This document shows positions 1,226 to 53,228 of a stretch of DNA of 64,000 nucleotides, piece after piece; position 1 is the first letter of the stretch; every line of letters starts with the position of its first letter. A program made the position numbers and the translations under genes. The stretch comes from Escherichia coli (GTDB taxonomy: Bacteria > Pseudomonadota > Gammaproteobacteria > Enterobacterales > Enterobacteriaceae), in NCBI RefSeq assembly GCF_003019035.1, contig NZ_CP027447.1. One strand, 5' to 3'. Under the pieces are notes generated by a model. That model was not told the origin of the DNA, made no database searches, and worked only from the letters and a program-made list of their open reading frames with translations.

Positions 1226-3295
1226 TTACTGTAACAGCGAAATATCCGCAACTCGCAGGAATAATTCGCGCAGTTTCTCCAGCATGGTAAGACGGTTGAT
1301 TCGCAATTCTTTGTCATCAACCATGACCATCACTTTATCGAAGAAGGCATCAACCGGTTCACGCAGCTCAGCCAGTTCGACCAGCGCATCCTGGTAACGA
1401 CCTTCAGCAAAGTACGGCTCTAGCTTGTCACGTAGCACCACAACCTGCATCGCCAGTTTAATTTCTTCCGGCTCTTTCAGAGTAGAGGCATTCACGCGGT
1501 CGCTCAGCACTTCGTCAGATTTCGCCAGAATGTTAGATACACGCTTGTTCGCCGCCGCCAGTGCTGCAGCTGCATCCAGGGTACGGAAGTGCGATACCGC
1601 TTTCATTCGGGCATCGAAATCAGCCGGACGAGTCGGACGACGCGCCAGTACCGCCTGGATGGTGTCAACGGTGTAACCTTCGTCCTGATACCAGGCGCGG
1701 AAGCGACCGAGCATAAAGTCGATAACATCATCAACCACGTTGGCATTAGTCAGCTTATCGCCATACAGACGCACTGCTTCTTCGGTCAGGGTTTGCAGGT
1801 CAAGATTGAGGTTCTTCTCAACGATAATACGCAGCACGCCAAGTGCGGCACGACGCAGCGCAAACGGGTCTTTGTCGCCTTTCGGATGCTGGCCGATACC
1901 GAAGATACCCGCCAGGGTATCCATCTTGTCAGCAATCGCCAGCGCACAGGCTACCGGGTTAGACGGCAGGTCATCACCGGCAAAGCGCGGCTGATACTGC
2001 TCGTTCAGCGCCACGGCAACATCTTCCGCTTCGCCATCGTGACGCGCGTAGTGCATCCCCATAACGCCCTGGGTGTCGGTGAACTCGAAGACCATGTTGG
2101 TCATCAGGTCGCACTTGGACAGCAGGCCCGCACGGGTAGCGTGGTTAACGTCAGCGCCAATCTGTTCAGCAATCCAGCCAGCCAGCGCCTGGATGCGGTC
2201 AGTCTTGTCACGCAGCGTACCCAGCTGTTGCTGGAACAGCACGGTTTGCAGGCGCGGCAGGTTATCTTCCAGACGTTTTTTACGGTCGGTGTTGAAGAAG
2301 AACTCGGCATCCGCCAAACGTGGACGAACGACTTTCTCGTTACCAGAGATAATTTGCTGCGGATCTTTCGATTCGATGTTGGCAACGAAGATAAAGTTCG
2401 GCAGCAGTTTGCCGTCGTTCGCATACACCGGGAAGTACTTCTGGTCACCTTTCATGGTGTAAACCAGTGCTTCAGACGGCACCGCGAGGAATTTCTCTTC
2501 GAATTTCGCGGTCAGAACGACCGGCCACTCCACCAGCGAAGCCACTTCTTCCAGCAGGCTTTCGCTTAAGTCAGCGTTACCGCCAATCTTACGCGCCGCT
2601 TCTTCGGCATCGGCTTTAATCTTCGCCTTACGTTCTTCGTAATCGGCGATGACTTTCCCGCGCTCACGCAGAATTTCCGGATACTGATCAGCATTGTCGA
2701 TAGTGAATTCCGACTCGCCCATAAAGCGGTGGCCGCGAATCACGCGATCGGACTGAATACCCAGAATGGTAGCCGGAATAACTTTGTCGCCCAGCAGCAG
2801 GGTCACGGTGTGAACCGGACGCACGAAGTGCACGTCGCTTGCGCCCCAGCGCATCAGTTTCGGGATCGGCAGTTTCGCCAGCGAAGTCGCAACCATATTC
2901 GGCAGCAGTGCTTCGGTGCTTTCGCCCTTCACGTGGGCGCGATACAGCAGCCATTCGCCTTTATCGGTAGTCAGACGCTCAGCCTGGTCAACGGTAATAC
3001 CGCAACCACGCGCCCAGCCTTCTGCCGCTTTGCTCGGTTTGCCTTCAGCGTCGAACGCCTGGGCAATCGCCGGGCCGCGTTTTTCGATTTCACGATCCGG
3101 TTGCGCTTCCGCCAGGTTACCTACTTTCAGCGCCAGACGACGCGGAGCAGCAAACCATTGAACGGTGCCGTGTGCGAGGCCAGCGTTATCCAGCTCCGCA
3201 GTAAAGTTCGCAGCAAAGGACTCAGCCAGGCTGCGCAGTGCTTTTGGTGGCAGCTCTTCAGTGCCGATTTCCACCAGAAAAGTTTTCTCAGACAT
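1226..3295 (-). CDS. glyS: Glycine--tRNA ligase beta subunit
   Basis: 689-aa [23 protein letters not shown]...; immediately downstream of glyQ on the same strand. Confidence 0.97.
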
Positions 3296-3304
3296 AGCCG
3301 CCTC

Positions 3305-4216
3305 TTACTTATCTTTGTTGCACATCGGGAAGCCGAGGGCTTCACGGGAAGCGTAGTATGCTTCTGCCACTGCTTTGGTCAGGGTGCGAATGCGCAGAAT
3401 ATAGCGCTGACGCTCGGTGACGGAGATGGCTTTACGCGCATCCAGCAGGTTGAAGCTGTGGGCGGCTTTCAGAATACGCTCGTAGGCTGGCAGCGGCAGC
3501 GGATTTTCCAGCGCCAGCAGCTGCTGCGCTTCTTTCTCGTACTGCTCAAAGCAGGTGAACAGGAAGTCCACATCCGCGTATTCGAAGTTGTAAGTGGACT
3601 GCTCCACTTCGTTCTGATGGAACACGTCGCCATAGGTGGTTTTACCCAGCGGGCCGTCGCTCCAGACCAGGTCGTAAACGCTGTCTACGCCCTGAATGTA
3701 CATTGCCAGACGTTCCAGACCGTAGGTGATCTCGCCGGTAACCGGTTTACACTCCAGACCACCAACCTGCTGGAAGTAAGTGAACTGCGTCACTTCCATG
3801 CCGTTCAGCCACACTTCCCAGCCCAGCCCCCAGGCACCCAGCGTCGGGTTTTCCCAGTTATCTTCCACGAAACGGATGTCGTGGATGGTCGGGTCCATGC
3901 CCAGCTCTTTCAGAGAACCAAGGTACAGCTCCTGAATATTGTCCGGCGATGGCTTAATGACCACCTGGAACTGATAGTAGTGCTGTAAACGGTTGGGGTT
4001 TTCGCCGTAGCGACCATCGGTCGGGCGACGAGAAGGCTGAACATAAGCAGCCGCCATCGGTTCTGGCCCCAGCGCGCGCAGACAGGTCATTGGGTGAGAG
4101 GTTCCCGCGCCGACTTCCATGTCCAATGGTTGAACAATGGTGCAGCCCTGGCGAGCCCAGTAATCCTGTAAGGTCAGGATCAAGCCCTGGAAGGTCCTGG
4201 TATCAAACTTTTGCAT
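3305..4216 (-). CDS. glyQ: Glycine--tRNA ligase alpha subunit
   Basis: 303-aa [28 protein letters not shown]...; 9-bp spacing to glyS. Confidence 0.97.
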
Positions 4217-5830: not shown

Positions 5831-6271
5831 TTACTCGCTGTATTCTTCCTGGGTAACCTGTGTTTCTTTTGGTGGGTTTATTCCGGCATCACGAATATTC
5901 TTCTGCACCGCTACTGCACCAAACAAGCTTAAGAAGAAAGCCAGTCCATAAAAACCTTTCTCGCTGAGTAATAACGTCGCATTCCACAGACCTACCATCA
6001 GTAACGCAACAGAGATAATAAAGACAGTCAGGCAGGTCATATAATAAATGGAGGTGGTCGGTATGCCTTCATACTTGTCCCGAACGGTCTTTTGATAAGA
6101 CGCCGCAGAAAACAGTCCTAATACCAGTACGGCAAAATAATATCCTTTTTCATTTAACTGCATCTCTGCATTCCATAGCCCTAACAGATAGGTAACGATA
6201 CCACCAACGAGAGCTATCCATGACACAATACTAAAGGCCGGTGAATAGGTTGATATTTTGTTGTCCATCAC
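5831..6271 (-). CDS. yiaA: Inner membrane protein YiaA (YiaA/YiaB family)
   Basis: 146-aa hydrophobic ORF, paralogous to the adjacent yiaB. Confidence 0.8.
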
Positions 6272-42693: not shown

Positions 42694-43302
42694 TCAAGCC
42701 TTTGGCGGTTCGGTGCGAGCAAAACTTTCGCGGCTAAAGAGGTTTTCGACCAGTTTGACTAAGTGTGGGCGGTCGACACACCAGCCTGGCGCAACGCGGC
42801 GGAAATTGAGATATCCAACGGCACAGGCAATGGCGATAGTCGCCAGATTGACCGTATCGGTTTTGAGCGTGCCATCGACCAGATATCCTTCCAGCACATC
42901 CAGACTGCGGTTGATTTTCTCCCGCTGGCGTAACAATTCATCTTCAGACTGCTGCGCCGCCGGACGCGCCTGTTCACGCACCGATACCAGCCCGGCATCC
43001 ATAATGCCATCCGCCAGCGCCTCAATTTTGCGCACCCGCAACGACTCCAGCGGATCACGCGGCAACATCGCCGGAGCAACATTCATTAATTCAATATATT
43101 CGGCGATGATCGGCGAATCAAACCAGCATTCGCCCTCTTCGGTCACCAGCACCGGCACTTTTCCTAACGGGTTAAATTGCGCCACGCCGTTATCCGCGTT
43201 ATAGGGCAGTTCATTAATAAATTCGAAAGTTATGCCCTTTTCTAACAACAGAATAGAAAGTTTGCGTACAAACGGGCTGGTGTAGCTACCGACGAGTTTC
43301 AT
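42694..43302 (-). CDS. yibF: Glutathione S-transferase family protein
   Basis: 202-aa [31 protein letters not shown]... Confidence 0.9.
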
Positions 43303-43530
43303 GCCGAGTCCTTTGTGCGAGGAAAAATATCAGTATGGCCTGGTGATGGGAAAAAGGGCAGAAAATGTTGATGGTTTGTTACTTCCCAATAAATCACATA
43401 TTTATCATGGTGATATAAATATTTTCCTAATTGTTCTTATCTGACAGATATCTCACTTAAGGCTTTCTTATAAATCTGTAGGGTTTCGCCTGTCAGCAGA
43501 CAAATAACCCGATAAAACAAGGATGAGCAG

Positions 43531-46500
43531 ATGAGCGGAAAACCGGCGGCGCGTCAGGGCGACATGACGCAGTATGGCGGTAGCATTGTTCAGGGTTCTG
43601 CCGGGGTGCGTATTGGTGCCCCCACCGGTGTGGCCTGTTCGGTGTGCCCCGGCGGGGTGACGTCCGGCCATCCGGTCAATCCGCTGCTGGGTGCAAAGGT
43701 CCTTCCCGGCGAAACCGACCTTGCCCTGCCCGCCCCGCTGCCGTTCATTCTCTCCCGCACCTACAGCAGTTACCGGACAAAAACGCCCGCGCCGGTGGGG
43801 AGCCTCGGCCCCGGCTGGAAAATGCCTGCGGATATCCGCTTACAGCTGCGCGATAACACTCTGATACTCAGTGATAACGGCGGCAGAAGCCTGTATTTTG
43901 AGCACCTGTTTCCCGGTGAGGACGGTTACAGCCGCAGCGAGTCACTCTGGCTGGTGCGCGGCGGCGTGGCGAAACTGGATGAAGGTCACCGGCTGGCCGC
44001 ACTCTGGCAGGCGCTGCCGGAAGAGCTTCGCCTGAGTCCGCATCGTTATCTGGCGACGAACAGTCCACAGGGGCCGTGGTGGGTACTCGGCTGGTGTGAG
44101 CGGGTGCCGGAGGCGGAGAAGGCCACTTCCGGCGGGACGGAACCGTCCGCTTTTCCTGATACCCTGCCGGGTTACACCGAATATGGCCGGGACAACGGCA
44201 TCCGTCTGTCTGCCGTGTGGCTGACGCACGACCCGGAATACCCGGAGAATTTACCTGCCGCGCCGCTGGTGCGCTATGGCTGGACGCCACGCGGCGAACT
44301 GGCGGTGGTGTATGACCGCAGCAATACACAGGTGCGCAGCTTTACTTACGATGATAAATACCGGGGCCGGATGGTGGCGCACCGCCGCGCGGGCCGGCCG
44401 GAAATCCGTTACCGTTACGACAGCGACGGGCGGGTGACAGAACAGCTAAACCCGGCAGGCTTAAGCTACACGTATCAGTATGAGAAAGACCGCATCACCA
44501 TCACCGACAGCCTGGACCGCCGTGAAGTGCTGCACACGCAGGGCGAAGGCGGGCTGAAGCGGGTGGTGAAAAAGGAACACGCGGACGGCAGCGTCACGCA
44601 GAGTCAGTTTGACGCGGTGGGCAGGCTTAAGGCACAGACGGATGCCGCAGGCCGGACGACTGAGTACAGCCCGGATGTGGTGACGGGACTCATCACGCGC
44701 ATCACCACGCCGGATGGCAGGGCATCGGCGTTTTACTATAACCACCACAACCAGTTAACGTCAGCCACCTGGCCTGACGGGCTGGAAATACGCCGGGAAT
44801 ATGATGAATCCGGCCGTCTGATTCAGGAAACCGCACACAACGGCGATATCACCCGCTACCGTTATGATAATCCACACAGTGACTTCCCCTGCGCAACGGA
44901 CGATGCCACCGGCAGCCGGAAAACCATGACGTGGAGCCGTTACGGTCAGTTGCTGACCGTCACTGACTGTTCCGGTTATGTAACCCGTTATGACCATGAC
45001 CGCTTCGGGCAGATGACGGCGGTGCACCGCGAGGAAGGCCTGAGCCAGTACCGCGCATACGACAGCCGTGGACAGTTAATTGCGGTGAAAGACACGCAGG
45101 GCCATGAAACGCGGTATGAATACAACGCCGCCGGTGACCTGACCGCCGTCATTGCCCCGGACGGCAGCAGAAACGGGACACAGTACGATGCGTGGGGAAA
45201 GGCCGTCCGTACCACGCAGGGCGGGCTGACCCGCAGTATGGAATACGATGCTGCAGGACGGGTCATCCGCCTGACAAACGAAAATGGCAGCCACACCACC
45301 TTCCGTTACGATGTACTCGACCGGCTGATACAGGAAACCGGCTTTGACGGCCGCGCACAGCGTTATCACCACGACCTGACCGGCAAACTTATCCGCAGCG
45401 AGGATGAGGGGCTGGTCACCCACTGGCACTATGACGAAGCAGACCGCCTCACGCAGCGCACCGTGAATGGCGAAACCGCAGAGCGGTGGCAGTATGACGA
45501 ACGCGGCTGGCTGACAGGCATCAGCCATCTCAGCGAAGGGCACCGGGTGACGGTGCATTACAGGTATGATGAGAAAGGCCGCCTGACCGGTGAGCGCCAG
45601 ACGGTGCATCACCCGCAGACGGAAGCACTGCTCTGGCAGCATGAAACCAGACATGCGTACAACGCGCAGGGGCTGGCGAACCGCTGTATACCGGACAGCC
45701 TGCCCGCCGTGGAATGGCTGACTTATGGCAGTGGTTACCTGGCAGGGATGAAGCTGGGTGACTCGCCCCTGGTGGAGTACACCCGCGACCGCCTGCACCG
45801 GGAAACGCTGCGCAGCTTCGGCCGTTATGAACTCACCACCGCTTATACCCCTGCCGGGCAGTTACAGAGCCAGCACCTGAACAGCCTGCAGTATGACCGC
45901 GATTACACCTGGAACGACAACGGCGAACTCATTCGCATCAGCAGCCCGCGCCAGACCCGGAGTTACAGCTACAGCGACTCCGGCAGGCTGACCGGCGTTC
46001 ACACCACCGCAGCGAACCTGGATATCCGCATCCCGTATGCCACGGACCCGGCAGGTAACCGCCTGCCCGACCCGGAGCTGCACCCGGACAGCACCCTCAG
46101 CATGTGGCCGGATAACCGTATCGCCCGTGACGCGCACTATCTTTACCGGTATGACCGTCACGGCAGGCTGACGGAGAAAACCGACCTCATCCCGGAAGGG
46201 GTTATCCGCACGGATGATGAGCGGACTCACCGGTACCATTACGACAGCCGGCACCGGCTGGTGCACTACACGCGGACACAATATGCAGAGCCGCTGGTCG
46301 AAAGTCGCTATCTTTACGACCCGCTGGGCCGCAGGGTGGCAAAACGGGTATGGCGACGTGAACGGGACCTGACGGGCTGGATGTCGCTGTCACGGAAACC
46401 GGAAGTGACCTGGTACGGCTGGGACGGCGACCGGCTGACCACGATACAGAACGACAGAACCCGCATCCAGACGATTTATCAGCCGGGGAGCTTCACGCCA

Positions 46501-47571
46501 CTCATCAGGGTCGAAACCGCCACCGGTGAGCTGGCGAAAACGCAGCGCCGCAGCCTGGCGGATGCGCTTCAGCAGTCCGGCGGCGAAGACGGTGGTGATG
46601 TGGTGTTCCCGCCGGTGCTGGTGCAGATGCTCGACCGGCTGGAAAGTGAAATCCTGGCTGACCGGGTGAGTGAGGAAAGCCGCCGCTGGCTGGCATCGTG
46701 CGACCTGACGGTGGCGCAGATGCAAAACCAGATGGAACCGGTGTACACGCCGGCGCGAAAAATTCACCTGTACCACTGCGACCATCGCGGCCTGCCGCTG
46801 GCGCTTGTCAGCACGGAAGGGGCAACAGCGTGGTACGCAGAATACGATGAATGGGGCAACCTGCTGAATGAAGAGAACCCGCACCAGCTGCAGCAGCTCA
46901 TCCGCCTGCCGGGTCAGCAGTATGATGAGGAGTCCGGCCTGTATTACAACCGCCACCGCTATTATGACCCGCTGCAGGGGCGGTATATCACTCAGGATCC
47001 GATTGGGCTGAAGGGGGGATGGAACCTGTATGGATATCAATTGAATCCGATATCAGACATCGACCCCCTGGGTTTATCTATGTGGGAGGATGCAAAATCG
47101 GGGGCATGTACTAATGGTCTTTGCGGCACACTATCCGCTATGATAGGTCCAGATAAGTTTGATTCTATAGATAGCACCGCATATGACGCCTTAAATAAAA
47201 TAAATAGCCAATCTATTTGCGAAGATAAAGAGTTCGCTGGTTTAATATGTAAGGATAATAGTGGCAGATATTTCTCAACAGCACCTAACCGAGGGGAAAG
47301 AAAAGGATCATATCCATTCAATAGCCCTTGCCCTAATGGTACTGAGAAAGTATCAGCTTATCATACTCATGGTGCAGATAGTCATGGAGAATATTGGGAC
47401 GAAATATTTTCAGGCAAAGATGAGAAAATAGTTAAAAGTAAAGATAACAATATCAAGTCATTTTATTTGGGCACGCCCAGTGGTAATTTTAAAGCAATAG
47501 ATAACCACGGGAAGGAAATAACAAACGGAAAAGGATTACCTAATGTCTGCAGAGTTCATGGTAATATGTAA
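43531..47571 (+). CDS. rhsA: Rhs-family polymorphic toxin (RhsA-type core with YD repeats, PxxxxDPxGL boundary at residues 1173-1182, and a 164-aa variable C-terminal tip)
   Basis: 1346-aa ORF; conserved N-terminus [17 protein letters not shown]...; YD-repeat core; DPLGL at nt 47062-47076 followed by an abrupt drop in GC content. Confidence 0.93.
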
Positions 47572-47926
47572 AAAAATATTGTTTAGGAACTGTGTCATTG
47601 TATCTTTGTTTGTTTTTACATACAACACATGGGCGCAGTGTAATAATAATATTAAAATAATGCGCAAGTATGAAAGTGAGGGTAAATATACCGTTAGAAA
47701 TTTGGTTAAAAATAAAGCTATAGCATTGGAATTAGCTGAGATATATGTTAAGAATCGTTATGGGCAGGATGCCGCAGAAGAAGAAAAACCATATAAAATC
47801 ACTGAGTTAACAACAAGTTGGGTTGTTGAAGGCACCATTCACTCAGACCAAATTGCTGGTGGGGTTTTTATTATAGAAATAGGCAAAAATGATGGGGGAA
47901 TTCTGAATTTTGGCCACGGAAAATAA
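47543..47926 (+). CDS. Putative immunity protein for the RhsA C-terminal tip (small AT-rich ORF with N-terminal hydrophobic segment)
   Basis: 127-aa ORF overlapping the rhsA 3' end by 29 nt; role inferred from position. Confidence 0.5.
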
Positions 47927-48030
47927 GTATGTAAGGATAATCAAACATCGTGTGCGCTGATGGCAGAGTAGGTGGAGGACTCCAGACAGTCAAACGATAA
48001 AAAAAGATAGCCTTTATGGAGGTTCCTGCA

Positions 48031-48873
48031 ATGTCAAATACATACCAGAAAAGAAAGGCAAGTAAAGAGTATGGTTTATATAATCAATGTAAGAAACTAA
48101 ATGATGATGAATTATTTCGCTTACTTGATGATCACAATTCCTTGAAAAGGATTTCATCTGCCAGAGTATTACAGTTAAGAGGTGGGCAAGACGCTGTTAG
48201 ATTGGTAATTGAGTTCTGCTCTGATAAAAATTATATCCGTAGAGATATCGGAGCATTTATACTCGGGCAAATAAAAATTTTCAAAAAATGCGAAGATAAT
48301 GTGTTTAATATTTTGAACAATATGGCATTGAATGATAAGAGCGCTTGCGTTCGAGCTACGGCAATCGAGTCAACGGCTCAGCGATGCAAGAAAAACCCAA
48401 TTTATTCACCTAAAATAGTAGAACAATCTCAAATTACTGCTTTTGATAAATCGACTAATGTCAGACGTGCTACAGCATTTGCTATTTCTGTTATCAATGA
48501 TAAAGCAACAATTCCACTATTGATTAATCTGTTAAAAGATCCAAATGGAGATGTCAGAAACTGGGCCGCATTTGCAATAAATATCAATAAATATGATAAT
48601 AGTGATATTAGGGATTGTTTTGTGGAGATGCTTCAGGATAAAAATGAGGAAGTCCGTATTGAAGCAATAATCGGACTTTCCTACAGAAAAGATAAAAGGG
48701 TTTTATCTGTTTTATGCGATGAGTTAAAAAAAAATACTGTTTATGATGATATCATTGAAGCTGCGGGTGAATTAGGTGATAAAACGCTACTTCCTGTTTT
48801 AGATACTATGTTGTACAAGTTTGATGACAATGAAATTATAACTTCCGCTATTGATAAGCTGAAGCGTTCATAG
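48031..48873 (+). CDS. yibA: HEAT-repeat protein YibA; start at internal ATG (MSNTYQKRK...)
   Basis: ORF 48016-48873; known 280-aa protein begins at 48031. Confidence 0.85.
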   Translation: MSNTYQKRKASKEYGLYNQCKKLNDDELFRLLDDHNSLKRISSARVLQLRGGQDAVRLVIEFCSDKNYIRRDIGAFILGQIKIFKKCEDNVFNILNNMALNDKSACVRATAIESTAQRCKKNPIYSPKIVEQSQITAFDKSTNVRRATAFAISVINDKATIPLLINLLKDPNGDVRNWAAFAININKYDNSDIRDCFVEMLQDKNEEVRIEAIIGLSYRKDKRVLSVLCDELKKNTVYDDIIEAAGELGDKTLLPVLDTMLYKFDDNEIITSAIDKLKRS

Positions 48874-48883
48874 CGTGAGTTGC

Positions 48884-49040
48884 CTATGCACAGTGGGGTA
48901 TTCCCGCCGGCACGGTGCAGATGCTCGATCGGCTGGAAAGTGAAATCCTGGCTGACCGGGTGAGTGAGGAAAGCCGCCGCTGGCTGGCATCGTGCGGCCT
49001 GACGGTGGCGCAGATGAAAAAACAGATGGAACCGGTGTAC
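48884..49040 (+). pseudogene. 5' portion of an orphan Rhs core fragment, separated from its continuation by an IS insertion
   Basis: About 150 bp nearly identical to rhsA 46600-46750, ending at the IS left junction. Confidence 0.6.
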
Positions 49041-50332
49041 CAGGGAAAGATCACGTAACGCTGCTTTTTTGTACTAAACAATTCGCATTTTATGTTTAAA
49101 AATTGAGATATTCCTCATTACCTGAAGCTGTTTTTTATTGCTTATACATGATCAAATACTCCTTACATAATTAAGGAGAACAAAATGGTACTTAAAAAAT
49201 TGATGGAACATATTTCTATTATCCCCGATTACAGACAAGCCTGGAAAGTGGAACATAAATTATCGGATATTCTACTGTTGACTATTTGCGCCGTTATTTC
49301 GGGTGCAGAAGGTTGGGAAGATATAGAGGATTTTGGGGAAACACATCTCGATTTTTTGAAGCAATATGGTGATTTTGAAAATGGTATTCCTGTTCACGAT
49401 ACCATTGCCAGAGTTGTATCCTGTATCAGTCCTGCAAAATTTCACGAGTGCTTTATTAACTGGATGCGTGACTGCCATTCTTCAGATGATAAAGGCGTCA
49501 TTGCAATTGATGGAAAAACGCTCCGGCACTCTTATGACAAGAGTCGCCGCAGGGGAGCGATTCATGTCATTAGTGCGTTCTCAACAATGCACAGTCTGGT
49601 CATCGGACAGATCAAGACGGATGAGAAATCCAATGAGATTACAGCTATCCCGGAACTTCTTAACATGCTGGATATTAAAGGAAAAATCATCACAACTGAT
49701 GCGATGGGTTGCCAGAAAGATATTGCAGAGAAGATACAAAAACAGGGAGGTGATTATTTATTCGCTGTAAAAGGAAACCAGGGGCGGCTAAATAAAGCCT
49801 TCGAGGAAAAATTTCCGCTGAAAGAATTAAATAATCCAGAGCATGACAGTTACGCAATTAGTGAAAAGAGTCACGGCAGAGAAGAAATCCGTCTTCACAT
49901 TGTCTGCGATGTCCCTGATGAACTTATTGATTTCACGTTTGAATGGAAAGGTCTGAAGAAATTATGCGTGGCAGTCTCCTTTCGGTCAATAATAGCAGAA
50001 CAAAAGAAAGAGCCCGAAATGACGGTCAGATATTATATCAGTTCTGCTGATTTAACCGCAGAGAAGTTCGCCACAGCAATCCGAAACCACTGGCACGTGG
50101 AGAATAAGCTGCACTGGCGTCTGGACGTGGTAATGAATGAAGACGACTGCAAAATAAGAAGAGGAAATGCAGCAGAATTATTTTCAGGGATACGGCACAT
50201 CGCTATTAATATTTTGACGAATGATAAGGTATTCAAGGCAGGGTTAAGACGTAAGATGCGAAAAGCAGCCATGGACAGAAAGTATCTGGCGTCAGTCCTT
50301 GCGGGGAGCGGGCTTTCGTAATCTTTCCCTGC
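49041..50332 (+). mobile_element. ISAs1-family insertion sequence (Rhs-associated H-repeat), apparently intact, with 15-bp terminal inverted repeats and a 9-bp direct target duplication CCGGTGTAC
   Basis: Terminal repeats CAGGGAAAGATCACG (49041-49055) and CGTAATCTTTCCCTG (50317-50331); flanking CCGGTGTAC at 49032-49040 and 50333-50341. Confidence 0.8.
49185..50321 (+). CDS. ISAs1-family (H-repeat-associated) transposase
   Basis: 378-aa [29 protein letters not shown]... recognised as an H-rpt / ISAs1 transposase. Confidence 0.9.
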
Positions 50333-50335
50333 CCG

Positions 50336-51109
50336 GTGTACACGCCGGCGCGAAAAATCCACCTGTACCACTGCGACCATCGCGGCCTGCCGCTGGTGCT
50401 TATCAGCACGGAAGGGGCAACAGCGTGGTACGCAGAATATGATGAATGGGGCAACCTGCTGAATGAAGAGAACCCGCACCAGCTGCAGCAGCTCATCCGC
50501 CTGCCGGGTCAGCAGTATGATGAGGAGTCCGGCCTGTATTACAACCGCCACCGCTATTATGACCCGCTGCAGGGGCGGTATATCACTCAGGATCCAATTG
50601 GGCTGAAGGGGGGATGGAATTTTTATCAGTATCCGTTGAATCCGATAACTGATATTGACCCGTTGGGATTAGCGACCTGTTTATACAGCATAACTTTAGG
50701 TATGCTTTCATGCGTTTCAGATACGCCAAGTGATGATAATTCTTATGGTGTGCTTACTATTTCAGTCGCCTCTGATAATAATGGTAATAATATGCAATGT
50801 AAAAATAATCCTGGTTGTACACACTTACAAAATAGAGGCCCAATACCTCAAGGGGTATGGAGCTGGAATGTTAATGGTCCTGGAGCAACCAATAGAAAAC
50901 CTAATGGTATACGTTTAGTACCGTCAGCAAATACAGAAACGTATAATCGTGATGGATTTTTAACACATAGTTGTTTAAACGCTTTTGGTCCATCTTTAGG
51001 ACCTCGATTCTGTTCCGAGGGTTGTATAACTGGTTCATCTAATGACATGCAAAAATTAAATGAGCTAATATTTTCAGAGCCAGATAGCACATTAACAGTG
51101 ACGGACTAG
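50336..51109 (+). CDS. Orphan Rhs C-terminal fragment (yibJ-like): last ~110 aa of the Rhs core through DPLGL plus a 145-aa alternative toxin tip with an L,D-transpeptidase-like Cys motif; GTG start in the ORF track
   Basis: N-terminal 110 aa nearly identical to RhsA residues ~1070-1180; tip contains H...SEGCITG. Confidence 0.8.
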
Positions 51110-51113
51110 AAAT

Positions 51114-51635
51114 ATGGCAAGGTTATTAACAATTGTGCTTTTTTTCTCTATTTCTGCGAATGCAGTTACTGTAAACCAATTTCAGAGAGAGTTGGATTTG
51201 GCAGACAAGGCAATATTATGGGCACTAATATCAGCCAGTACCCAAGAGGGACGAAAAGCGTGTTCACTTAGCTATTTTTCATGTAAAGCCGCAGAGGCTG
51301 AACTCGGACTGGCATATATGGCTGCTAATGATAACAAGGCATTTCTCACATCCTTATCTAGAATAATGATGTACAAAATAGATGCTGGACTTTCCGAATC
51401 CTATACATGCTATTTATTAAGCAAGGGAAAGATCATAAGACCATATCTGAAGAATCTAAATCCACACCAACTTGTCGCTGATTGCATTGAAACTGTAAAT
51501 AAAATAAAAGATAAAAATAAAAAAATCATTGATATAGATTCAGTTAATATTTGCAATGATAATAAAAATATAAATTGGAGAGTTAATAGTACTATTGTAG
51601 CCATTGATGATTCTATAAAATGCATCGATGAATAA
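51114..51635 (+). CDS. Putative immunity protein for the orphan Rhs tip, with cleavable signal peptide (predicted periplasmic)
   Basis: 173-aa AT-rich ORF 4 bp downstream of the orphan tip; N-terminus MARLLTIVLFFSISANA-VT. Confidence 0.5.
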   Translation: MARLLTIVLFFSISANAVTVNQFQRELDLADKAILWALISASTQEGRKACSLSYFSCKAAEAELGLAYMAANDNKAFLTSLSRIMMYKIDAGLSESYTCYLLSKGKIIRPYLKNLNPHQLVADCIETVNKIKDKNKKIIDIDSVNICNDNKNINWRVNSTIVAIDDSIKCIDE

Positions 51636-51797
51636 TAACTTAATTATATTTAAAAATATATTAATAACTCACTCTCCAGGAGTTTTTTTAACTTAGTGTT
51701 ATAATGAATACGATAATTAAAAGTGAAGAGAAAAATAGTTGTATACATATATTCCATGAACCTACATTGTGATCTATAAATTATATATTTTTAAATG

Positions 51798-52030
51798 TGA
51801 CTGTCATCCTTCAGATAATAAAGCCATCATCGCAATAGATGGAAAAGCACTCCTGCTCTTTTTTGATTAGAGCCGTGGCAGAGGAACAACTCATATCATC
51901 ATTGCGATCTCGACAATGTATAGTCTGATCCTTCGGCAGATCAAGACGGATAAAAATCCAATGAGTTCACACTCATCCCGAACTTCTTAACATAATGGAT
52001 ATTAACGAAAAATCATCACAGCCGATGAAA
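51798..52030 (+). pseudogene. Degenerate internal remnant of an ISAs1/H-repeat transposase gene
   Basis: About 230 bp with ~75-80% identity to 49480-49700 of the intact transposase gene, with frame disruptions. Confidence 0.65.
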
Positions 52031-52091
52031 TAATATGCAAAAATAATTAGTCCTTGCAGGGAGCAAAGTTCCATAATCTCCCCCGCCCCCC

Positions 52092-53228
52092 TCAATGATC
52101 CAAATAAAGATAATGCATCCAGCTGGTCATTCTTAGCAGCACTTTCCGCATCACCGAAACATGGCTGAAATGGTCGGAGTAAACTGCCACCTGGGCGTAG
52201 ATGCCGTCGGGTAAAGCATCGATATCATCGTTAGGGTCCAGTTCAATGGTTCCCAGCACACCGTCCGTGCCGGGCACGACCGTTAATGATTGCAATACCC
52301 CTTGCGCCTGATACGAACCGCCTGGCACGACAGGTAAAATACTAGTCAGTTTGCCGTGGAACACCTGCCCAGGTAGCGCGTTAAACACCACTTCCGCATC
52401 ATCGCCGGGTTTCAGACGTAACAGCGAGTTCTGCCGAAATTGGGCGACAATTTGCCGTTTTTGCTCGGGGATGAAAACCATCACCGGACGTAGCGGCAAG
52501 GCAGCTGCGTATGTACCTGGGCGGATCAGTACCTGAGTGACGTAGCCATTGCTCGGTGCGCGAATGACAGTCTGCTCAAGGTTATATTTTGCTTCAGTAA
52601 GTTGCGCTCTTAAGCTCACAATCTGCGACTGCTCGCCGTTAACCATACTGTCGAGCTGGCTCTGGATCTGCGCCTGCTCCGCCACCGAGCCTTTCACCAG
52701 CGCGTCCTGCGCGAGGAAGTTTTGCCGCGCATCGTCGATGTCACGTTCCGAGAACGGATTCACTGCCGCCTGGCTGCCTATCAGGTAACGTTGATAATTT
52801 TTAAACAGACGGTCGCGCTCCGCTGAAACCTGGGTGGTGTTGGCCTGCGCTTCAGTGAGCTGCGCGCGCAGCGTCTTTATATTATGCGTCGCCGTCATCA
52901 GGTCAGCCTGAAGTCTGTCAACTCGCGCCTGGTAACGAACCGGGTCGAGCTTAAAAAGCACCTCGCCCTTCTGAATAAGCTGATTATTTTTGTCGGTGAC
53001 TTCAGTAACAATTCCCGTCACCTGTGGCGTGATGGGGATCGCTATCACTGCCTTTTGCGCGGTAAAAGTGTAAGGGTGGTTGTAGTTCATCAACAAAATC
53101 AAACCACTCACCAGAAACACGCCTCCCAGCGCCGCCGTCGCCAGCGTCCACTGATTTACCGGAATGCGGAAGATTTTAAAGACCGCCCACGCCAGCGCCA
53201 CGTAAGTTAAAACAATCAATAGATCCAT
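52092..53228 (-). CDS. yibH: HlyD-family membrane fusion protein
   Basis: 378-aa ORF with N-terminal TM segment and coiled-coil region. Confidence 0.9.

Follow-up and report, generated by a model that had tools for sequence, protein, structure and literature searches.

What occupies the distal edge of the RhsA locus of Escherichia coli, between the last immunity gene of the Rhs element and the core chromosomal gene yibH? The question is raised by a 64,000-nucleotide stretch of contig NZ_CP027447.1 (assembly GCF_003019035.1), hereafter the window, which carries this locus and whose nearest complete genome is that of SCU-301 (99.7% identity across 47500-52100). A preliminary description, made from the sequence alone, had placed an older, degraded H-repeat remnant there, downstream of the orphan module. 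The locus is laid out as follows:

42694-43302, minus strand: yibF
43531-47571: full rhs gene with RHS repeats and a DUF4329 tip
47543-47926: Imm-NTF2-2 immunity gene (yhhH-like)
48016-48873: yibA (HEAT repeats)
49185-50321, plus strand: intact ISAs1-family transposase gene, 378 aa
50336-51109, plus strand: end of an orphan rhs core with a Tlde1 tip (Pfam RHS and Tlde1_dom)
51114-51635, plus strand: Imm57 immunity gene of the orphan module (Pfam Imm57, E 1.4e-44)
51636-51796, plus strand: AT-rich spacer from the Imm57 stop to the relic
52092-53228, minus strand: yibH (HlyD-family), a core chromosomal gene, with yibI beyond it

With a probability of roughly 0.9, the segment 51797-52088 would be a non-functional fossil of an ISAs1-family insertion sequence (IS) related to the E. 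coli H-repeat (ISEc1), lying at the yibH-side edge of RhsA. The relic is real, had been correctly interpreted and is ordinary, being already known as the orthologue of the K-12 pseudogene yibU. What is added here is the retained right terminus, the coincidence of this terminus with an island boundary, the antiquity of the relic on a population scale and, for the intact copy, its target duplication and its rarity. The relic consists of the following parts:

51797-52027, plus strand: segment A, an internal fragment of an ISAs1-family (H-repeat-like) transposase gene, element positions 428-661
51868-51870, plus strand: in-frame TAG stop, AAG (Lys) in the intact gene, common to the window-type and K-12-type alleles
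52028-52048, plus strand: deletion scar of 21 bp with no convincing alignment to the IS
52049-52088, plus strand: segment B, the right terminus of the IS (transposase 3′ end and right inverted-repeat region)

The homology of segment A is confirmed. In a BLASTN comparison of 51700-52100 with 49100-50400, 51797-52027 and 49468-49701 align in the same orientation, 186 of 234 positions being identical (79.5%) with 3 gaps and an E value of 5e-54, in close agreement with the 75-80% identity that had been claimed for 51798-52030 against 49480-49700. The local score of 228 stands far above background (mean 20 and maximum 30 in 300 shuffles), and the pair formed by segment A and the intact copy was recovered independently by a repeat search (D2, D5, D6). 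Segment A spans transposase residues ~95-172, the AIDGK motif included, and in a tblastn comparison 31 of 52 amino acids are identical (60%) over residues 96-147, with an in-frame stop inside the match (E 7e-18). The frame disruptions mentioned in the preliminary description are the TAG at 51868-51870 and, by comparison with the intact gene, three deletions of 1 bp each within 51945-51959, 51974-51985 and 52001-52012. A transposase open reading frame with a complete DDE domain is absent from the relic, which keeps residues ~95-172 of 378. Unable to encode a transposase, the relic is a pseudogene fragment and no functional member of the ISAs1 family.

Segment B was absent from the earlier account and is a new piece from the present analysis. 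Its 40 bp match 50294-50334, where the transposase gene has its final 28 bp and the element its right inverted repeat, at 76% identity (BLASTN, E 0.005) and colinearly with segment A, and its score was reached by none of 2000 shuffles. At the intervening scar, element positions 662-1253 (about 592 bp) are missing; the scar itself is nearly identical in the K-12 allele, with one A/G difference. In total, the relic measures 292 bp (51797-52088) and keeps element positions 428-661 and about 1254-1291, having lost positions 1-427 and 662-1253; no trace of the left part (1-427) was found in 51400-51796 by tblastn or blastn. Terminal inverted repeats are thus not present at both ends, the relic being one of a right end only, and no target-site duplication is identifiable for it, the left end being deleted. 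The IS end proper lies at about 52085; next come CCCCCC and, at 52092-52094, the yibH stop codon, so that the relic ends 6 bp before this codon. With the right-terminal piece, both the full length of the relic and the precise boundary of the island discussed below are fixed.

The assignment to the ISAs1/H-repeat family, which had also been proposed, is borne out at the protein level. A frame-repaired, allele-consensus translation of 77 aa matches the NCBIfam model NF033564 (ISAs1 family transposase) over profile positions 69-144 with 70.7 bits (E 1.2e-19), the cut-off of the model being 70 bits and the intact copy scoring 416.6 bits. When 1.84 billion representative proteins were scanned with HMMER, the best full-length relatives (392 and 396 aa) were 71% and 69% identical, both with H-repeat transposase sequence, and the next full-length proteins were at most 53% identical. 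A word-indexed protein search for relatives returned only fragments and open reading frames called on the relic itself. The homology of the relic to the H-repeat (H-rpt)/ISEc1 group, represented by yhhI in K-12 RhsB, ydcC in RhsE and the intact copy of the window, is colinear along the transposase gene. The relic also has the same orientation to the rhs gene and the same place downstream of the Rhs tip and immunity modules. It differs from this group in being only 79% identical to the intact copy in nucleotides and about 71-73% in amino acids, and in lacking the left end, an intact reading frame and the DDE domain beyond the first Asp region. Near-identity to the extant H-rpt/ISEc1 group was not found, the relic standing at 79.5% against mostly 95-99% among the circulating 1291-bp copies.

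The counterpart in E. coli K-12 MG1655 is annotated as a pseudogene:

NC_000913.3 3769948-3770146, plus strand: yibU (b4652), between yibV (PF15596/Imm57 protein) and yibH

In K-12, yibU is described as H-repeat-associated. It shares with the window relic its position between the Imm57 gene and yibH, its strand and its lesions (the TAG and both deletion endpoints), is about 93% identical to it, and starts 2 bp inside the counterpart of segment A; the two are orthologous on all of these grounds. The annotated feature differs from the relic described here in extent, for it comprises 199 bp of segment A without the last ~30 bp, the scar and segment B. As to the alleles, that of the window differs from that of K-12 at 20 of 295 aligned positions and at 2 indel positions, and it does not have the 1-bp insertion that opens a 75-aa reading frame in K-12. 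In genomes annotated by PGAP, the relic region is left blank.

The relic is found at the orthologous site in about 3,710-3,724 of 5,426 complete E. coli genomes. The surrounding 461 bp (51640-52100) is present in 3,724 of these 5,426, almost always at a single chromosomal place directly abutting yibH, with an identity to the window of at least 99% in 255 genomes, of 95-99% in 110 and of 90-95% in 3,358, the last group including K-12, B/BL21 and O157:H7. Exact-pattern scans of the GTDB species representatives with a degenerate 26-mer and with a plain 20-mer, which are insensitive to diverged copies, both gave zero orthologues in other species; hence the representative genome of E. coli is also without these sequences.

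In relic-free genomes, homology to the window ends exactly at 52088-52092. In one island-free genome (L005), yibF and yibH are 70 bp apart, with ~31 bp of unrelated filler at 5968-6001, and in another (L004), a fimbrial usher/chaperone island occupies the same site. The loss of homology at the yibH edge indicates that the island spans 43340-52091 (8.75 kb), from a left boundary at 43339/43340 to a right boundary at the yibH stop codon, with the relic as its last component.

This geometry gives substance to the first alternative, which concerns the manner of arrival rather than the nature of the relic. The relic could have been the terminal part of the RhsA island at its acquisition, possibly already truncated, in which case the locus would hold one imported copy and one copy transposed in situ. 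We regard this as a serious contender at not quite even odds. The right terminus of the IS lies within 6 bp of the island boundary at the yibH stop, precisely where the homology of RhsA-less genomes ends; among the matches examined, the presence of the relic goes together with that of the island; and the relic has no identifiable target duplication. On the other side, a search for an ISAs1-like inverted repeat at the left end of the island was negative, its scores being equalled or exceeded by 27-88% of shuffles, and nothing therefore points to mobilisation of the island by the IS; moreover, an IS inserted later at the junction of island and chromosome would look the same. Since the relic has neither a left end nor a target duplication, arrival with the island and later insertion both fit. 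What sequence comparison establishes is an old H-repeat copy at the island edge, as distinct from an insertion in situ into the Rhs element. The relic may, in other words, have arrived with the island, and H-repeats have been at this Rhs element more than once.

Whatever the route, the fossil predates the divergence of this strain and K-12. Relative to the intact H-repeat, 40 differences are common to the window and K-12 alleles, 10 are specific to K-12 and 4 to the window. The 40 common differences, together with the common lesions (the TAG, the scar and both deletion endpoints), indicate that the relic was already broken and diverged before the lineages of the window and K-12 split. The two alleles have not decayed at significantly different rates, with 10 derived changes against 4 (p 0.18). 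Between the window and K-12, the relic differs by 6.8% (20/295) and the Imm57 gene by 6.5%, while divergence at 4-fold degenerate sites is 8.7% for yibF, 6.3% for yibH and 9.2% for mtlA. As the divergence of the relic is close to that of 4-fold sites, the relic evolves at a near-neutral rate and has shared the inheritance of the genes around it. It can serve as a useful neutral marker, by which the distal end of RhsA, with the Tlde1/Imm57 orphan, is shown to be older than the separation of this lineage from K-12.

Comparison with the intact H-repeat is less straightforward. The substitutions are distributed over the three codon positions as 16:7:16 (chi-square p 0.07), and the inferred ancestral relic, set against the intact H-repeat, gives a dN/dS of 0.36, an intermediate value, with a dS of 0.43 (24 nonsynonymous and 16 synonymous changes). 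Both values argue that the divergence of the relic is not purely post-mortem drift. Part of the 21% divergence probably arose between functional IS lineages, so that 79% identity is no clean clock, and the source of the relic may have been a somewhat different ISAs1-type element. The preliminary description had inferred the greater age of the relic from its percent identity; the order of the two copies holds on independent grounds, whereas, with a dN/dS of 0.36, the percent identity cannot be put down to age alone.

These figures lead to the second alternative, that the relic comes from a distinct ISAs1-family lineage which diverged from ISEc1 while still functional; "older H-repeat" would then be partly a misnomer, and the relic would still be old. 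We consider this conceivable at clearly less than even odds. The dN/dS of 0.36 at a dS of 0.43 is lower than expected with one wholly neutral branch, and the relic lies far outside the present diversity of H-repeats, which are mostly 95-99% identical to the copy of the window. Moreover, a scrap at 3523-3656 of the EC476 locus (L006) is also about 79% identical to the H-repeat, hinting at a common old type. However, no intact member of such a lineage turned up in 5,426 E. coli genomes, 72,556 plasmids or 1.84e9 protein representatives. A sensitive blastn search of these genomes and plasmids for a closer source element returned nothing above ~81% outside the orthologous site, the remaining matches, at 81% or less, being ordinary ISEc1-type transposase genes. 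In addition, first and third codon positions are equally changed (16 against 16), which indicates substantial neutral decay, and the counts are small (24 nonsynonymous, 16 synonymous).

The intact copy, with which the relic has to be compared in age, has a quite different history. Its components are as follows:

49041-50331, plus strand: intact H-repeat/ISEc1 element, 1291 bp, with the transposase open reading frame at 49185-50321
49041-49065 and 50307-50331: terminal inverted repeats of the intact element, 25 nt
49032-49040, plus strand: left 9-bp target-site duplication, CCGGTGTAC, inside an orphan rhs core fragment
50333-50341, plus strand: right 9-bp target-site duplication, CCGGTGTAC

Its transposase contains the Pfam domains DDE_Tnp_1_assoc and DDE_Tnp_1. 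Two core repeats, D3 (46620-46746 = 48914-49040) and D1 (46738-47037 = 50333-50632), overlap by 9 bp, and the unoccupied single-copy target is present in the main rhsA core at 46738-46746 as well as in EC476 (L006) at 2032-2039. The H-repeat is a live family: full-length copies occur in 4,936 of the 5,426 genomes (median 5 places per genome), most genomes having as their best copy one that is 95-99% identical to the intact copy of the window. The exact left junction of the latter was found in 1 of 5,426 complete E. coli genomes (SCU-301), and about 60 related genomes have an H-repeat at another position in the same locus. The clean target duplication and the rarity of the junction are direct evidence for a recent transposition of ISEc1 into rhs core sequence, separate from the relic.

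The earlier claim of two temporally separate H-repeat copies is therefore upheld as to their order. The relic is the older one, being orthologous in about 3,710-3,724 of 5,426 genomes and divergent by a neutral 6.8%, while the junction of the intact copy occurs in 1 of 5,426; the part of the claim that takes both for insertions into the Rhs element goes further than the evidence from the island edge. In order of time, the old IS copy comes first, the formation of the orphan second and the recent transposition of the intact copy last. This is in accord with the scheme of Jackson et al. (2009), in which orphan rhs tip/immunity modules arise by C-terminal displacement and the most distal is the oldest (PMC2935791): the relic is distal to the most distal orphan (Tlde1/Imm57), as befits an ancient one. 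It differs from the orphan modules of that scheme in being itself no toxin or immunity module, and no mention of IS, transposase or H-repeat components was found in PMC2935791.

On the favoured reading, the copy was inactivated long ago. With its left 427 bp it lost the left inverted repeat, the promoter and the N-terminal transposase domain, and with 592 internal bp most of the DDE catalytic domain; neutral drift has since added the stop codon and the three frameshifts. The common ancestor of this strain and K-12 carried the relic in its broken state, vertical inheritance with the island followed, and the intact H-repeat 1.5 kb upstream goes back to a separate insertion into the orphan rhs core fragment that took place far more recently. 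The relic is immobile because a single end remains. Its longest exact match to the live H-repeat is 15 bp, and given the substrate requirements of RecA, an identity of 15 bp should be too short for efficient homologous recombination; thus, the relic appears too diverged to recombine efficiently with live H-repeats.

It may be asked whether such a remnant could have been given a new role. In one version, the relic would have been co-opted, its right end serving as the 3′ UTR or terminator of yibH, or the region being transcribed from a promoter in the spacer as a small RNA or small open reading frame. A terminator-like hairpin with a T-rich tail is indeed found on the minus strand at 52068-52052, inside segment B and 24 bp after the yibH stop, and its stem persists in K-12, where a G-C pair is replaced by G-U. 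A 75-aa reading frame (P0014) has been called on the K-12-type allele, and a survey of RNA-polymerase holoenzyme binding lists an RpoD site in the K-12 yibV-yibU spacer with the promoter TTAACT...GATAAT (PMC3946193). In the window, the same hexamers are present at 51688-51717, in the AT-rich spacer upstream of the relic and outside it. We nevertheless hold co-option to be very improbable: the hairpin has a weak stem of 6 bp, 3 of them G-C, folding of the 76 nt as a whole gives a z-score of -1.8, with 10 of 200 shuffles folding as well, the reading frame differs between the alleles through a 1-bp indel, and the relic evolves at the neutral rate. No Rfam family matched in 51000-52600. The relic thus appears to have no present function. 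It is also unlikely, if slightly less so, that the island originally ended distally in an ISAs1-type element which was involved in its integration beside yibH, or that the IS terminus has been kept as an insulating 3′ UTR or terminator between the convergent yibH transcript and the Rhs orphan modules.

The remaining explanation is either a spurious resemblance (chance or low complexity) or a recent, rapidly decaying local duplicate of the intact copy. It has nothing but the AT-rich context in its favour and is refuted by the E value of 5e-54, by a score more than 80 sd above the shuffles, and by the presence of the relic in K-12 and in thousands of genomes without an intact H-repeat in RhsA.

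Taken as a fossil of an H-repeat-related IS, the relic is mostly a matter of annotation hygiene and implies no new biology.

Several observations on the locus and its relatives are worth recording. On the minus strand, a sigma-70-like match (ATGACA-16-TATAAT, 11 of 12) spans the left junction of the relic at 51780-51807 and points antisense into the Imm57 gene; its -10 element is weaker in the K-12 allele, and the match is probably due to chance. The region has undergone secondary rearrangements in two strains. Strain fS25a (L007) has an IS1 that truncates the first ~50 bp of the relic, and its orphan modules are deleted, while in strain 98206 (L008) an IS66-family element lies between the Imm57 gene and the relic. 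The RhsA loci of about 60 related genomes contain an extra orphan module and, immediately left of the intact H-repeat in each, another old H-repeat scrap. In EC476 (L006, NZ_AP027419.1), the old H-repeat scrap at 3523-3656 corresponds to element positions 217-350 (~79% identity) and lies directly left of an intact H-repeat, and a 28-bp scrap of element positions 611-638 is located further left, at ~3267-3294; therefore, several ancient ISAs1-type fragments exist in this locus family.

The orphan genes next to the relic are better preserved here than in K-12. The Imm57 gene is intact in the window (51114-51635, 173 aa) and frameshifted in K-12 (L001 8475-8996), where it is annotated as the shorter yibV. 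Likewise, the Tlde1 orphan toxin forms an open frame of 257 codons here, while in K-12 the pseudogene fragments yibS and yibW stand in its place. Finally, at the RhsA position, the main rhs gene (43531-47926 region) has a DUF4329 tip and is accompanied by an immunity gene of the yhhH type (Imm-NTF2-2). In K-12, this tip type bears the name RhsB/YhhH, and the EC476 copy is called rhsB by PGAP; the tip at the RhsA locus has therefore been exchanged relative to K-12.
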